DNA of 64,000 nt, taken from assembly GCF_963921235.1 (NCBI RefSeq), contig NC_086097.1:33978001-34042000 (forward strand). Reading direction: 5' to 3'. The translations under genes and the position numbers were made by a program. A model generated the notes under the pieces. That model worked only from the letters and a program-made list of their open reading frames with translations. It was not told the origin of the DNA and searched no databases. Numbering within the stretch: position 1 is the first letter of the stretch; the number at the start of each line of letters is the position of its first letter. This DNA comes from Mobula hypostoma (lineage: Eukaryota). Positions 22,834 to 46,635 of this stretch are shown here, in pieces.

Positions 22834-23595
22834 CCTTAAAGAATATAACTCTAGGCACAAGGACAACTTCAATCCTCCTGTTATAAGACTGTCTGACAAA
22901 GATTAATTCTTTACCTCACAATCGATCTCATCATGCCAGGCTTGCATTGCACTTTCATTTAACTGTATCACAGTATCCTGTGTTATGCTATTCATTTTTC
23001 CCTGTACTACCTTGATGTACTGATATAGTGAAATGAACTGTTATGGATGGCATGTAAAACAATTTTTCACTGAACCTCAGTACATATGACAATAATAAAC
23101 CAATTATCAAGCTCCATATGCAAAACACACACATAAACACAAGAAAATCTGCAGATGCTGTCAATCCAAGCAACACACACAAAATGCTGGAGGAATTCAG
23201 CATCCGGGCAGTGTCTATGGAAAAAATACAGTCGACATTTCAGGCTGAGACCCTTCATCAGGACTGGAAAGGAAAATGAGAAGTCAGAGTAGGAAGGTGA
23301 GGGGCGGGGAGGAAAAGTACAAGGTGGTAGGTAATAGGTGAAACTGGGAGAGGGAGAGGGGTGAAGTAAAGAGCTGGGAAGTGATTGGAGAAAGAGATTG
23401 TGGTGACATCAAATGCAATAATGTGCCAGTACATGATTGGACAGAGCACTGAGCATGTGCGATTGCCAGAATGTTCAGCACGTGGCTGGGTTAAGACGTG
23501 TTTGTTTATTACTGTAAATAAAAGTTCTCTAATTCTTCCAGAATATGATTCTTTACTGTTAACCCATGGTACGTTTAAACAGAAGTAACATAACA

Positions 23596-23610
23596 TGGTG
23601 TCAGAAGTGG
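23596..23610 (+). other. Primer-binding site tggtgtcagaagtgg
   Basis: Complementary to the 3' end of vertebrate tRNA-Leu (…CCACTTCTGACACCA) and immediately follows the LTR. Confidence 0.85.
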
Positions 23611-23701
23611 TTCTGGAAGAATAATACGGGAGAATCGAGAATCAAGAATCGAAGATAATTGAAAGAAAGAGAAGATAAAAGTTCGAACTGTAAACGGTAA
23701 A

Positions 23702-25134
23702 ATGGAAGGTTTACAACCCCCACCAAAACTTCAGCTGACTGGCAACGTAGCTGAGAATTGGAGGATATTCAAACAACAGTTTGAAATATATTTATCGGCA
23801 ATCGGAGCTGATAGAAAAGTGGACAAAACTAACGCTGCAATCCTGCTCCATGTAATTGGGAATGACACAGTAGAGGTATATAACAATTTTGTCTTTGAAG
23901 ATGGAGATAATTTCAATTTGAAGTTGGTAAAGAACAGATCTGAAGTATTTTGTATACCTTAGTGTAATTTAACATATGAGCGATTTAAATACTTCACACG
24001 TGCGCAGAGAGCTACTGCAACAATCGATCAGTATGCGACTGAGTTAAGAAAGTGTAGTAGAATGTGTAAATTTGGATTGCTCACAGACTCTCTTATTAAA
24101 GATAGACTAGTTAGTGGCATTCGAAATAATGCACTGAGAGAAAGGCTTTTGCGTGAGCAAGATTTAAATTTTGAAAAAGCTTTCGCGCTCTGCAAAGCTT
24201 CTGAGACCGTAATGTCGCAGGCCGAAGAGCTTTTTGTCGAAAACTGCAATGTAAATGCCGTAAAAAAGCGCAAATATATCAAGATATATAATAATACGTC
24301 GACAAAACCAACAGGGAGTAAGACAGCGTTTGAAAGAAAAAAGTCATGTGATCGCTGTGTGTGGGAACATCGCCTAAATCAGTGTTTCGCATATGGCAAT
24401 ATTTGTTACAACTGGGTAAGATTAATAATTTTTCGCGCTGTTGTAGAAGTAGAAAGAAGGAAAATAAAATGAAACAAGTAAATGCAGTGATTGAAGATGA
24501 CCGTGAGGAATTTTATATCGATGCGCTTTATGAAAATGCTGACATGGAGAATATAAAAGCAGTAGATGCAGTGTCTGAGACGACCAAACAGGAGGCAATT
24601 GATGATTTGAAAAAGCATTGGGAGGAGGAGGTTGCTTCAGTGCAAGCCATAATGAAAGAGACACTGAGAGAATATGAGATTCAGTCTAATCACCGGCTAG
24701 AGCAAGAACACTCACAGTGGGCACAGTATAAGGAAGAAGTGAAAGCACAAGTGAAGGAATTGAGAAGTTGTATTGAAATGATGAAGTCGCAGCATGAAAA
24801 AGAGATTACACAGTTAATGAATGAATTAGATGAAGAAAAGAAGATTTGTATTTCATTACAAATGGAAGTGGAAGGAGATAGGAAAGATACAGTCCAAACA
24901 GAAGCAGGGAAGCAGATTGCTGAGGAAGATAGCATGAACTGTTTACCTGAAATTCCGGATTCTATCCAGGAGGCATGTGAGAGTATACCAAAAAGTTTAG
25001 TTGAGGTACACAAAGAAAAGCTTAAAGCAGAAAAGAAGAAGACAAAGAAGAATCACAAGAAGAGTCATGGCTCAGAGAGCGAAAAGCCATCTTCAGAGTT
25101 TCAGTTAGCTGATATAGATTTGTTTATTGGTTAA
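23702..25134 (+). pseudogene. Chimeric Gag-RABEP1-SH3KBP1 ORF (~477 aa reconstructed; one TAG at 23960-23962 and one 1-nt frameshift near 24413)
   Basis: Gag: LQLTGNVAENWRIFKQQFEIYL...IKDRLVSGIRNNALRERLLRE, then tandem CCHC knuckles (CDRCxxxHxxxxC; CYN[C][10 protein letters not shown]). The frame then stays open through host-like coiled coils to TAA at 25132-25134. Confidence 0.85.
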
Positions 25135-26226
25135 TGTTGTTATCTGTTTTTCTTTTTAAGGAAAGGAAGATGTGATTCTTCAGACGAATGCAGACGAATG
25201 CAGACGAGACAAAACATGTAAATAATAACAAGGAAACACAAGATCTGTGTGTACCACTTAGAAGGTCTACTCATGTTCGTAAACCCACAGAGAGACTGAT
25301 AGAGACTTGTTGAATTATGTATTTGCTTTGATTAACGTTGTTAATTATTTTTTTAAGGAAAGGAAGATGTGGTGATATCATGTGCAATGATGTGCCAGTA
25401 CACGATTGGACAGAGCACTGAGAATGCGCCAGGTTGCCAGAATGTTCCAGCACGTGGCTGGGTTAAGATGTGTTTGTTTATTACTGTAAATAAAAGTTCT
25501 CTAATTCTTCCAGAATAATATTCTTTACTGTTAACCCATGGTATGTTTAAACAGAAGTAACATAACAGAGATAAAGGGGGAATCTGATAGGAGATGGTAG
25601 AAGACCACAGGAGAATGGGAAAGGGGAGGAGCACCAGAGGAGGTGATGAGCAGGTAAAGAGATAAAGGAGATAAGGAGAGAGCAGGAAACAGGAATGGGG
25701 GAACAGTGAAGGAGTGGGGCCGGCGATTACTGGAAGTTCGAGAAATCGATGTTCATGCCATCAGGTATAAGGTGTTGCTCCTACAGCCTGGTTGTGGCCT
25801 CTTTGCGGAAGTAGAGGAGGCCATGGACCGTCATGTCAGATTGGGATTCAGAAGTAGAATTGAAATGGGTGGCTACTGGGAGATACTGCTTTTTCTGGCA
25901 GACGGAGTAATCTCCATATATCTTGATTCCCTTAAGAGTTATAAATCTTTCAAGACTTGCCTTGAATATACACAACAGATGAGCCTCCACAGCTCTTTAG
26001 GGAAGTAACTTCTAAAGAGGTGTTTTTGTGCTAAGTGGTTAACTCATTTTGCATCTGGGAAACTTGGTTCTAAGTACCTCATACCAGGGAAAGATCAACA
26101 CCTACTTCAGTGAGATCACCCCTTATTCTTCTAATTTTAAGAGTATAGGCCTAGTCTTAATCTCTCCAAGTATGACAAGTCTGCTAACCTGGGAATCAAT
26201 CTGTTGAACCTTCACTGCAATCCCTC

Positions 26227-43330: not shown

Positions 43331-44602
43331 TGTCTGTGTTCTTTTATAAACCCACTGAATCTCACGGCTACCTGCACTATACCTCTTCCCATCTGGCCAC
43401 TTGTAAAAATGCCATCCCCTTCACTCAGTTCCTCCATCTGCACCGCATCTACCTTCAGGATGAGGCTTTTCATTCCAGAACTGATGAGGCATCCTCTGTT
43501 TTCCTTCCTCCACTATCAACATTGCCCTCACCCATATCTCTTCTATTTTGCGCATGTCTGCCCTCACCCCACCCTCCTGCGACCCTACCAGGGACAGGGT
43601 ACCTGTTGTTCTCACCTTCCACCCCACTAGCCTCCGCATCCAGCAAATAATTCTCCGTAACTTCTGCCATCTCGAACAGGATCCCACCACCAAGCACATC
43701 ATTCCTTTCCCCCACTTCCTGCTTTCCGCCCACAGGTACTGCTCCCTGTGTGACCGCCTTCGCCATTCGTCCCTCCCTATGGATCTCCCTCCTGGCACTT
43801 CCCCTTGCATGTGGTACAAGTGCCAGACCTACCCCTACCCCTACACCTCCTCCCTCACTACCACTCAGGGCCCCAAACCAGATGAAGGCGACACTTCAGC
43901 TGTGAGTCCGTTGGGGTCATCTGTTGTATCTGGTGCTCCCGGTGTGGCCTCCTGTATATTGGTGAGACCTGACATAGAACAGGAGACCACTTCAGCAAGC
44001 ACCCATGCTCTGTCTGCCAGAAAAAGTGGCATCTCCCGATGTCCACACATTTCAATTCTACTTCCCATTCCCATTCCATCATGTCAGTCCATGGCCTCCT
44101 TTACTGCTGTGATGAAGCCATATTCAGGTTGGAGGAGCAATACCTGATATTCCATCTGGGTAGCTTCCAACCTGATGATATGATCATTGATTTCTCGAAC
44201 TTCCAGTAATTGCACCCCCAACTCTTTCACCATACCCCCATTTCTGTTTCTCTCTCTCACCTTATCTCCCTACGTGCCCATCATCTTCTCTGGTGCTCCT
44301 CCCCCTTCCCCATCTTCTACTCTCTCTTATCAGATACCTCCTTCTCCAGCCCTTTATCTCTTTCACCAATCATTTCCCAGTTCTTTACTTTACCCCCCTC
44401 CCAGTTTCACCTATTAGCTACCACCTTGTACTCCTTCCTCTCCTCCCCCCACCTTCGCACTCTGACCTCATCTTTTTATCCAGTCCTGATGAAGGGTCTT
44501 GACTGTTTACTATTTTCCATAGATGCTGCCAGGCCTGCTGAGTTCCTCCAGCAGTTTGTGTGTGCTGCTGGGATTTTCAGCATCTGCAGATTTTATTGTG
44601 TT
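43331..44602 (+). mobile_element. Penelope-like element (RT C-terminus + GIY-YIG), degenerate
   Basis: FYKPTESHGYLHYTSSH...KNAIPFTQFL, RVPVVLTFHP, CSRCGLLYIGET; pyrimidine-rich 3' end. Confidence 0.85.
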
Positions 44603-46635
44603 TCTGTCTATGCAATTACTTTGCTTCAAATACCACAGGGTTTTAACTTGTTTAAGAGCCTGGTGTACAGCATCTTATCAAATGCCTTCTGACAATCCAA
44701 GTAAATAACATCCACTGACTCTTCTTTCTCTAACTCAGTTGTTATTTCCTCAAAGTATTCTAACAGCCTTCTAGCCAAGATCTCCCTTAACAAACCCATA
44801 TTGTTTTTGCCCTATTTTAACACGGCTTCCAAATGGTCTATATTTTCTTGTATTTTGCCTCCCTGCCTTTTTCAGTGTCCAGTCATCCCTGTCTCCAGTC
44901 ATTTCTAAAAAGATCACTACTAACACCTTCACAATTTCTTCAACTATTCTCGTTCAGACGTCTGGGATATAATCCAAATTGTGGCTTATCTACCTTCAAG
45001 GCTTTTAGCTTCCTCAGCACCTTCTCCTTAGTAATGACCACTAAATTCACCTCTGCCCCATGATTCTTGAATTTCTGGCATTGTTACTAGTGGCTTCCAC
45101 AATGAAAACTGATGCTAAGTACTTACTTAGTTCCTCCGCCATCTCTCTGTTCCTCAATAGAGCTTCTCCAGTGTCATTTTCCAGTGGTCCAATAATCACT
45201 CTAGCCTCTCTCTTGCTTTTTATGTATCTAACTATTCTTATGTTCCTTTAGTATTATTTGTTTCTAATATTTACTTGAAAATGATTGAAAAACAATCACA
45301 CTATTTAATGTCTTCTTGTTATGCACTTTCTCCAGATAATTAATGTGAAGAAAATATGGAAGAATCGGTACCATTCTTGTTCCTGAGTCACAGGGCTGAG
45401 GGCTCAAGACTCACTTTGGAGACTTGAGCCAGTGTTCACTGATTTTTATAGATCCCCCCCACAAGAACTTAATCATGACTAGTTTTTCATCAATGAAATT
45501 ACGGCCGGTTTGGCAAATACTGCGTATCATTTTGTTTGCACATCCTGCTTTGGTTAGACAAATGTACAGAGCAAGATTCCAAAACAGTGACTTAAAGGAT
45601 GAAAGGAAAAAGGTTGAAGAGGACAGTGGTACAGACTCTGTATGCCTCTGAGCTTTCAAAATAGGTGAGAATATCAAATCATTAAGCCTACGTACCTTGA
45701 AATAATTAAAACTTAGGTTTCAAGCTAACGTTTACTTAAAATTTCAAATTAATTTCCACAAAAGATTGTTTTGTAATGAAGAACTCTCTGCCATAAAACA
45801 TTGTTGAAGATTATCTTTAACATATTTTGAATGTTAAATTACTTGCATATAAAGCCAACACAGCATATATGAAAGGTAATAATATTTGCTTTAAGTTATA
45901 GAGAGAACTAAACATTGTAGGGTTGGTTAAGAAGGTTTTATGCTGCAGCATAAAATTGCAGCCTTTTTATATTTTTATATTTACTATTATTGAATGTTAC
46001 TCTTCATTTTTCTTTGATGATTTTCAGCTATTCTATGTCATAAATGCAAAGTGCAGAGCACAAACAAAAAGGAAAGGAAACCTGGCAACATCTGCCCACA
46101 AACCAATACATTTGGCATTACACAAATGATAACTCATTTTTAGTTGGGCAATTTCCTCATGGCTGGAGTATTTCTCTGCTACGGTCAAAAACCAGTTAAT
46201 GTAGTTTAAGGGCCAGACCTCTTAACCAGCATTACTTTGCTGCTATTTATGTAGGAAAATCAGCCCTGGCAAGAAACTACTTCCATCATGTTTCCATTTA
46301 AGTAATACACCTATAAACATCAGTTATTTTGTTTATCAGCTCCCATTAAGATCTTGGGTTGAATGTGAATAAATTCTAGCATCACAAAGAAATAAGCCTC
46401 TTGCAGATTAAGCATGCAGTAAAATATTGACATGAACACTCGAATGATGCATGAGAATATGAACATATCATAAAAATATACATATATGCATACAAATAAT
46501 AAACTGGATTATATTACTTGTCTCCTTCAACTTGTTCTGCTATTTAATGAGATCATAGCGGATCTTTTTTAACCTCAACTTCCACATTCCTGTCTCTTTA
46601 CTATAACCAAGAGGGACAGTATTGGCCAATCAGCC

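Follow-up and report, generated by a model that had tools for sequence, protein, structure and literature searches.

A probable Ty3/gypsy-derived LTR element family of Mobula hypostoma carrying fragments of RABEP1, SH3KBP1 and SLU7 in frame with gag

The window analysed here, a stretch of 64,000 nucleotides from Mobula hypostoma (NCBI RefSeq assembly GCF_963921235.1, contig NC_086097.1, positions 33,978,001 to 34,042,000 of the forward strand), contains at positions 23399-25567 a 2169-bp long terminal repeat (LTR) element in which gag is followed, in a single frame, by fragments of the three host genes RABEP1, SH3KBP1 (CIN85) and SLU7. This element is probably one dead member of a Ty3/gypsy-derived family of non-autonomous, 'transducing' LTR elements, which would have originated by template switching of reverse transcriptase (RT), would have been propagated in trans and would carry their tail of host fragments as a passenger.

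Structure of the element and of its tail

The element is complete. Terminal repeats with TG starts and CA ends (92.5% identity across 200 alignment columns), a target-site duplication (TSD), a primer-binding site (PBS) complementary to a tRNA and a polypurine tract (PPT), i.e. the features of an LTR retrotransposon, are all present (Table 1). The first-pass annotation had described an element of this length with LTRs of about 200 bp, a PPT and a GAGAT TSD, and this description was borne out by the LTR alignment and by an empty site. An older interspersed repeat hosts the element (flanks 23131-23398 and 25574-25907). An uninterrupted paralogous copy of this repeat on the reverse strand of the window (44008-44607) is 72-81% identical to the flanks and has a single GAGAT at the point matching the insertion (within 44300-44400). 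Thus, the insertion and the accompanying 5-bp duplication are directly visible. At the 3' end, the module comprising 3' untranslated region (UTR) and PPT is present in duplicate.

The 15 nt of the PBS are complementary to the 3'-terminal 12 nt, with CCA added, of a tRNA gene that contains an intron and occurs at three places in the genome. Such a gene, with a long variable arm and a 3' end matching the family PBS, lies at about 1405-1520 of locus L060 (G000:C5:53493114-53496132). The complementarity to a tRNA 3' end originally noticed is therefore confirmed; the assignment to tRNA-Leu depends on our manual reading of the anticodon loop as Leu(CAA), whereas ARAGORN, which found no tRNA in L060 in its default mode, placed the intron differently when introns were allowed and called Thr(cgt).

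In the window copy gag carries two lesions, a TAG at 23960-23962 and a frameshift in the second CCHC knuckle near 24413-24416, and the tail frame behind it (24469-25134) is open over 221 codons, both as first noted. Pfam returned no gag family for either gag piece of the window and only weak protease matches for the sister copy L051, and neither the reading frames nor Pfam revealed an RT or integrase (IN) domain within the 2169 bp. An in-frame deletion following the gag-to-protease linker has taken the protease (PR) together with the first 27 codons of the RABEP1 piece, and the host portions amount to about 66 codons of RABEP1, 51 of SH3KBP1 and 61 of SLU7. The RABEP1-like and SH3KBP1/CIN85-like segments reported from the first inspection were both recovered by database matches; the Rabaptin match (PF03528) spans profile positions 50-203 of 486, and the RABEP1 and SH3KBP1 homologies overlap at 24733-24741. 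The Lys-rich end of the tail, which had been left unnamed, is likewise part of the open frame and turned out to be a fragment of SLU7. Its borders are given by contigs read as host SLU7 transcripts, which part from the element exactly at 24901 and 25083. In contrast, the statement that the element has no pol had to be corrected, as C-terminal remnants of integrase are found at 24889-24900, 25084-25113 and 25176-25313. The last of these stretches is shared by L059, a degenerate relative of autonomous type described below, up to ..RRSTCVRK, after which L059 has a stop. The domain sets of the parent proteins are incomplete in the window copy, which contains neither SH3 domains (compare the host protein P0157 below) nor the Rab5/Rabex-binding C-terminus. 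Judged by these domains, it does not appear to be a functional paralog of RABEP1, SH3KBP1 or SLU7.

Table 1. Features of the LTR element and its target site (window coordinates)
Feature	Position	Strand	Basis or remark
TSD, left copy, GAGAT	23394..23398	+	paralogous empty site with one GAGAT
5' LTR, 197 bp, TG..CA	23399..23595	+	92.5% identity to 3' LTR
PBS, TGGTGTCAGAAGTGG	23596..23610	+	complementary to 3' end plus CCA of tRNA gene in L060
gag, two CCHC knuckles (24347-24385, 24404-24444)	23702..24468	+	in-frame TAG and frameshift
gag-to-protease linker, start of tail	24469..24537	+	ends at in-frame deletion; public-run contigs unlike before 24534
RABEP1 fragment, end of host exon 3 and start of exon 4, intron-less	24538..24735	+	Pfam PF03528, E 3.4e-30
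SH3KBP1 (CIN85) C-terminal coiled-coil fragment	24736..24888	+	PDB 2n64 (E 6e-12), 5abs (E 8e-12)
Integrase C-terminal remnant TVQT, shortened from ..ATVLEEVQPRSYMVQTEEG..	24889..24900	+	comparison with L051, L055, L059
SLU7 fragment	24901..25083	+	crosses junction of two host exons; 76% identity to Amblyraja radiata SLU7 aa 430-486
Integrase C-terminal remnant (10 codons), then 3'-UTR-derived codons, stop at 25132-25134	25084..25134	+	comparison of sister forms
PPT, internal first copy, followed by TGTG as at LTR start	25158..25170	+	duplicated 3' module
Second integrase C-terminal remnant, ending ..PLRRSTHVRKPTERLIETC and stop (native pol end)	25176..25313	+	same end in L051, L055
PPT, AAGGAAAGGAAGA, 13-nt purine run adjoining 3' LTR	25355..25367	+	read from sequence
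3' LTR, 200 bp	25368..25567	+	LTR comparison
TSD, right copy, GAGAT	25568..25572	+	paralogous empty site

Origin of the host fragments and modular history

The host genes were located in the same genome. RABEP1 lies on contig C71, and its captured piece begins within exon 3 and passes directly into exon 4, the 9-kb intron being absent; in the window copy this piece differs from the host mRNA at 11 of 198 nt. SLU7 lies on C21, where a 5.7-kb intron that is absent from the element separates the exons in L057 and L058 (67582901-67583600 and 67588701-67589400), and the captured piece starts in the exon upstream of these two. SH3KBP1 was found on C18 via P0157, a protein of 663 aa with three SH3 domains and SH3KBP1 as best PDB matches, whose C-terminus corresponds to the piece in the element. 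L051 matches one SH3KBP1 exon (L061 491-741, 251 nt, AG/GT borders) at 98.4% identity, and the transposable element sequence continues beyond this exon at both ends; the remaining exons of the C-terminal part of the host gene were not found. Thus, three host pieces continue across exon junctions without introns, which argues for their origin from mRNA. Together with the open frames of L005, L042 and L051 this agrees with the initial proposal that pieces of host mRNAs were captured in succession and in frame. The intron of host SLU7 between the captured exons has a GC-AG boundary (GAG/GCAAGT), and another, less well matching pair of SLU7-like exons is present at C66:6507770-6508761.

Apart from the form represented by the window copy, designated form C, three sister forms were found. 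Form D (L037, L038) contains the protease, about 60 first RT codons up to '..QLKTEL', RABEP1 from 'KRQN..' to '..SEGQG' and integrase from 'DKIRMQDKMNTW..'. In form A (L051, L055), gag with its knuckles and the protease are followed by a short RT remnant, by the ~120 C-terminal codons of SH3KBP1 and by integrase from 'TVLEEVQPRSYMV..' to the native stop; in L051 the frame is open over 563 codons (gag-PR-SH3KBP1-IN). Form B (L031-L034, L041, L042, L062, L063) corresponds to D without the RT remnant, and its RABEP1 piece is interrupted by the SH3KBP1 coiled coil and restarts behind it with 'RELTDLRRRLSEGQG'; the open frame of L042 (gag-PR-RABEP1-SH3KBP1) comprises 396 aa. Form C combines the A-type end of the coiled coil with the deletion of the protease, the insertion of SLU7 and the duplicated 3' module. 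The frame of L005 is open from gag into the tail over 327 aa. The SH3KBP1 coiled coil is thus found in three of the four forms and has moved between them. An A-like variant, L064 (G000:C2:28243874-28244737), has lost 90 nt within the SH3KBP1 piece without a shift in frame, and its frame stays open across the PPT and meets a stop only in the opening bases of the LTR.

A further variant containing only RABEP1 aa 55-131 (at least 16 match rows) was considered and rejected, as the two loci that were checked proved to be B-form copies with independent deletions of 4 nt and 2 nt. These deletions, in L062 and L063, lie at a GA-rich stretch, GAGACACTGAGAGAA, at the joint of RABEP1 exons 3 and 4. Many of the listed RABEP1 protein matches end there, which suggests that this stretch is a slippage hotspot.

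At four junctions analysed at the DNA level, 3-6 nt were seen to be common to the two sides; examples are AGA between protease and RABEP1 in form B, GAAG between RABEP1 and SH3KBP1 and GTGGAA between SH3KBP1 and RABEP1. For the joints of form D, the common residues 'EL' and 'QG' were seen at the protein level only. Microsimilarity of this kind marks a switch of template by RT, as described for LTR-mediated retroposition in animals (PMC5131818). Splicing onto the starts of exons as the mode of capture had been suggested by the RABEP1 joint of form B, which lies 4-5 nt inside exon 3, and by the DNA match to SLU7 at an exon start. It was ruled out, since the older form D joins RT '..QLKTEL' to RABEP1 '..EEL/KRQN' and the SLU7 piece begins one exon earlier. 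Overall, there is good support for an origin in which RT switched templates to mRNAs that were already spliced.

The native frame is kept on both sides at 14 of the 14 junctions or internal deletions that were examined. In form D these are RT/RABEP1 and RABEP1/IN, in form A RT/SH3KBP1 and SH3KBP1/IN. Deletions in the RT remnant, one in L051/L055 and one in form B, also belong to the set, as do both joints of the inserted coiled coil and, in form C, the protease deletion, the shortened IN stretch and the two SLU7 joints. L064, which was examined out of sample, has its 90-nt deletion and a rearrangement of the RT remnant, both leaving the frame open. By our own estimate, which counts each insertion as one constraint, the chance of finding all of them in frame is about 1e-5 or less. 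As template switching takes place without regard for codons and all joints examined are nonetheless in frame, only frame-keeping derivatives appear to have spread. As to the cause, read-through translation might shield the RNA from decay, the nascent Gag fusion might capture the RNA that encodes it, or some property of the fusion protein might be decisive.

The following course of events would account for these forms. In virus-like particles, RT would jump at a few shared bases from the element RNA to co-packaged spliced host mRNAs and back. Form D would arise by replacement of RT, RNase H and IN by the RABEP1 piece, and form A by uptake of the last ~120 SH3KBP1 codons. Recombination between A and D would then insert the coiled coil of SH3KBP1 into the RABEP1 piece, giving form B, and form C would follow by in-frame deletion of the protease, gain of the SLU7 piece and duplication of the 3' module. 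The chimeras would retain what is needed in cis, namely LTRs, PBS, PPT, 5' leader and gag, and the RT and integrase of autonomous relatives would copy and integrate them in one old burst, leaving 5-bp duplications and hundreds of copies. The host pieces would most likely be passengers, the selected trait being an uninterrupted frame from gag to the 3' end rather than the amino acids of the tail. With such an open frame, the genomic RNA might go on being translated and remain stable, or it might be packaged in cis.

Copies, relatives and selection

To determine the size of the family, the 3.48-Gb assembly was searched at the DNA level, which gave 59 matches from 1400 first-look candidates, 40 of them scored. 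Nearly the whole element is spanned by 20 match rows including the window copy, and the other 19 are 83-91% identical to it. From 30 loci retrieved as full-copy sample, 22 had two LTR matches. A 5-bp TSD was found in 17 of these 22 copies, at different sites (8 exact, 9 with one mismatch), and was unreadable in the remaining 5. The element was thus mobile in its short form, as first supposed, and the copy search that had been advised has shown that it is not single-copy. The SLU7 piece, a marker of the window form, is present at 81 places with E <= 2e-12 (104 candidates, all scored), the RABEP1 piece at at least 150 places (150 listed of 306 candidates) and the SH3KBP1 piece likewise at at least 150 (150 listed of 805 candidates). 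Furthermore, the junctions of the family recur in contigs of four public runs labelled with several organisms; their labelling as RNA is a guess, and they indicate presence only. That the window locus is a one-off passenger or an artefact of assembly or annotation is practically negligible as an explanation, given these recurrent junctions and numerous independent copies, spread over many contigs and bearing TSDs of their own, which refute a single event.

The contigs from the public runs also hold sequences read as host SLU7, RABEP1 and SH3KBP1. In run X6, contig word depth over window positions 24713-24858, i.e. the SH3KBP1 coiled coil, is ~11,000 as compared to tens to hundreds elsewhere, and this peak may stem from host SH3KBP1 or from the commoner A-form copies.

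The whole frame is open in none of the 22 full C-form copies, and the two LTRs within a copy are 71-95% identical (median ~91.5%). Within the sampled copies, the family is old and dead. The non-CpG p-distance among the 22 copies is 0.12 in the 5' UTR and 0.106 in gag within 23399-24400, 0.082-0.089 in the LTRs and 0.072 in the tail (24469-25131). The higher divergence of 5' UTR and gag suggests that several gag lineages acquired one and the same tail by recombination. Three A-form copies are located within 45 kb of each other (G000:C1:168384947 and 168429840 on the forward strand, 168424725 on the reverse strand), two of which have the same score; the arrangement resembles a local segmental duplication with the element in it. 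In L007 (G000:C59:59226001-59231178), a PBS lies directly 3' of the 3' LTR and no target duplication is found there, which suggests a tandem or recombinant array with a common LTR.

Copies of the family are also contained in protein annotations of other rays. P0029, P0002 and P0003 from the annotations of Hemitrygon akajei and Hypanus sabinus are translations of A- or B-like copies, in which a knuckle or protease is followed by RABEP1 and/or SH3KBP1, and are labelled 'RABEP1-like' or uncharacterised. Their closest matches in the M. hypostoma genome, among the matches listed, have 88-89% identity. The presence of these chimeras in stingray annotations indicates that the family is common to rays. 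One might ask whether some copies are emerging host genes, i.e. domesticated Gag-RABEP1-SH3KBP1 chimeras, as the NCBI entries for the two stingrays and the long open frames of L051 and L042 could imply. We consider this very improbable: the annotated proteins start inside gag or protease and look like gene models placed on transposable element copies, no full C-form copy is intact, LTR divergence is 5-29% in all sampled copies, and no orthologous conserved locus was identified.

The search for relatives led to polyproteins of ~1290 aa, with which gag-PR of L051 aligns at a best E of 2.8e-131 and 59% identity. Related polyproteins of 1285 aa contain protease, RT, RNase H and integrase domains. 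Precomputed Pfam assignments of the polyprotein relatives are PF13975, PF00078, PF17917/17919, PF17921 and PF00665, and the sources name them 'Gypsy retrotransposon integrase-like' or 'K02A2.6-like'. By these database matches and source names, the family is probably Ty3/gypsy-derived. Full-length but degenerate relatives of autonomous type are present in the genome as well. One of them, L059, has 13 stops and a PBS identical to that of the family but for one letter; the C-terminus of its integrase is 94% identical to L051 (form A), and its gag-protease region 82% identical to forms A and D. The RT, RNase H and integrase core are absent from the window element, and yet it belongs to a family that has transposed, as the independent TSDs document.

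Purifying selection was assessed by pooled pairwise ratios of non-synonymous to synonymous substitution rates (dN/dS) from the 22 copies, with the same DNA read in the two wrong frames as control. For two parts of gag, dN/dS is 0.39 and 0.42 as compared to 0.60-0.91 off frame, and for the whole tail 0.68 (bootstrap 0.54-0.90) as compared to 0.49 and 0.72 off frame. Thus, a signal of purifying selection is found in gag and none is detectable in the tail. The mean distance of the copies from host RABEP1 mRNA is 6.5%, and at only 3 sites of the RABEP1 piece do half of the copies or more carry a change against the host, which is synonymous at one site and non-synonymous at two. From the small number of changes common to the copies it follows that nearly all divergence of the tail is post-insertional and that the burst came almost immediately after capture.

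Several observations weigh against the interpretation as a trans-mobilised family with a passenger tail. We infer mobilisation in trans from the missing RT and IN together with the TSDs. A search for an autonomous partner had been advised. L059 with its nearly identical PBS is the best relative examined but degenerate, with no more than 72% identity to the gag of the window copy and 69-81% identity in the LTR, and reference-based searches of the genome found no intact autonomous partner with the same LTR. The frame rule was drawn from the abundant forms sampled and the variant L064. With regard to the tail, the dN/dS test has low power, since nearly all of the divergence arose after insertion, and the non-CpG divergence of the tail, which is below that of gag and the LTRs, could reflect some constraint. 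The SH3KBP1 segment taken alone, with the lowest dN/dS among the tail segments, gives 0.39 (0.24-0.64) as compared to 0.51 and 0.90 off frame; weak constraint on this segment would be compatible with these values, which are not decisive.

The last point bears on the proposal, made in the first-pass annotation for the tail in general, that the captured coiled coils aid the spread of the family by increased oligomerisation, routing to endosomes or interference with a helper. The SH3KBP1 piece is indeed the C-terminal coiled coil of the protein, of which PDB 2n64 lists three chains, and the RABEP1 piece lies within the Pfam Rabaptin family. The recurrence of the coiled coil in three forms and the frame-keeping at every junction examined would fit such a role as well. 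Nevertheless, we regard it as quite improbable. The dN/dS of the tail cannot be distinguished from the off-frame controls, two of the three family-wide RABEP1 changes are non-synonymous, only ~66 RABEP1 codons are left in the window form, and all four forms were amplified despite quite different tails, so that no particular module was required. A related possibility, unlikely though worth stating, combines both aspects: only derivatives translatable from gag to the 3' end would be mobilised, and the coiled coils, of dimer type in RABEP1 and of trimer type in CIN85, would replace Pol and cluster the Gag fusion into helper particles. The element would then be a 'parasite of the parasite' with a tail made of shuffled host exons. 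If this were true, uninterrupted translation in cis would be a requirement for its RNA, which would thereby be captured co-translationally by the Gag fusion it encodes or would escape decay. A function for the appended tail is thus unproven, and the interpretation of the tail as a passenger of a trans-mobilised family is preferred.

Relation to known systems and significance

Gag-only non-autonomous LTR elements exist, e.g. of the TR-GAG and BARE-2 type, Gag-host fusions of defective transducing retroviruses are a functional analogue of the chimeras described here, and maize Bs1 is present in few copies. Like elements of the TR-GAG and BARE-2 type, the ray family has kept gag, apparently under purifying selection, and has no RT and IN cores; it differs by the host fragments and integrase C-terminal remnants in frame and by sister forms that keep the protease.

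The architecture had initially been taken as undescribed. This does not hold for its principle, as maize Bs1 and LTR-mediated retroposition in animals are in print (PMC5131818, PMC13317346, available in part). According to the accessible portions of these two articles, which cite Jin & Bennetzen 1994 and Elrouby & Bureau 2001, 2010, Bs1 contains three transduced host genes with a hybrid open reading frame and was reported to be transcribed and translated. Bs1 and the ray family are thus both non-autonomous LTR elements with pieces of three host genes. They differ in that Bs1 resides in a plant and has one of its three pieces out of frame (PMC5131818, in the portion available), whereas the ray family resides in a cartilaginous fish and has all of them in frame. 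For animals, the available part of Tan et al. 2016 (PMC5131818) describes LTR-mediated retroposition ('pseudo-LTR retrotransposons'), in which spliced host mRNA sits in a discontinuous LTR element that has TSDs and both LTRs, with microsimilarity where the sequences are fused, as in the family presented here. Retrocopies joining two genes are reported there, and further rounds of retroposition are considered possible. In contrast to that survey, which in the same portion gives only two Drosophila retrocopies at more than one insertion site, the ray family comprises at least hundreds of copies, three genes and several recombinant forms in one frame with gag.

Endogenous retroviruses (ERVs) with captured host mRNAs have been described as well, in crocodilians with KIT-ligand/nectin3 (PMC4299795) and in birds (PMC12287698). 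To the extent that these sources were available, replication-defective transducing retroviruses and ERVs share with the ray family the exchange of pol sequence for host mRNA, the need for a helper and recombination in the course of reverse transcription. The crocodilian captures are under purifying selection according to the accessible part of PMC4299795, whereas the ray tail has no detectable signal. The ray family further differs from retroviruses in having no env, in its probable Ty3/gypsy relatives and in carrying fragments instead of whole coding regions. No paper on this family was found when searching for retrotransposon together with RABEP1 and SH3KBP1, nor among the papers listed for vertebrate non-autonomous LTR elements with host fragments. 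Overall, the mechanism is known, and what differs is the cartilaginous-fish host, the copy number of the chimeras, the reshuffling of three pieces among sister forms and the strict keeping of the frame.

As a practical consequence, repeat masking is advisable for ray annotations, where copies of the family are listed as 'RABEP1-like' or uncharacterised proteins. The results presented here provide a clear vertebrate case of an LTR element that takes up pieces of spliced host mRNAs and amplifies to hundreds of copies. They also document exon shuffling by retroelement recombination, with three unrelated genes brought into one frame, at a scale beyond the survey of PMC5131818 as far as its text was available. 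Furthermore, the keeping of the frame at all examined junctions offers a testable clue to the needs of helper-dependent LTR elements.

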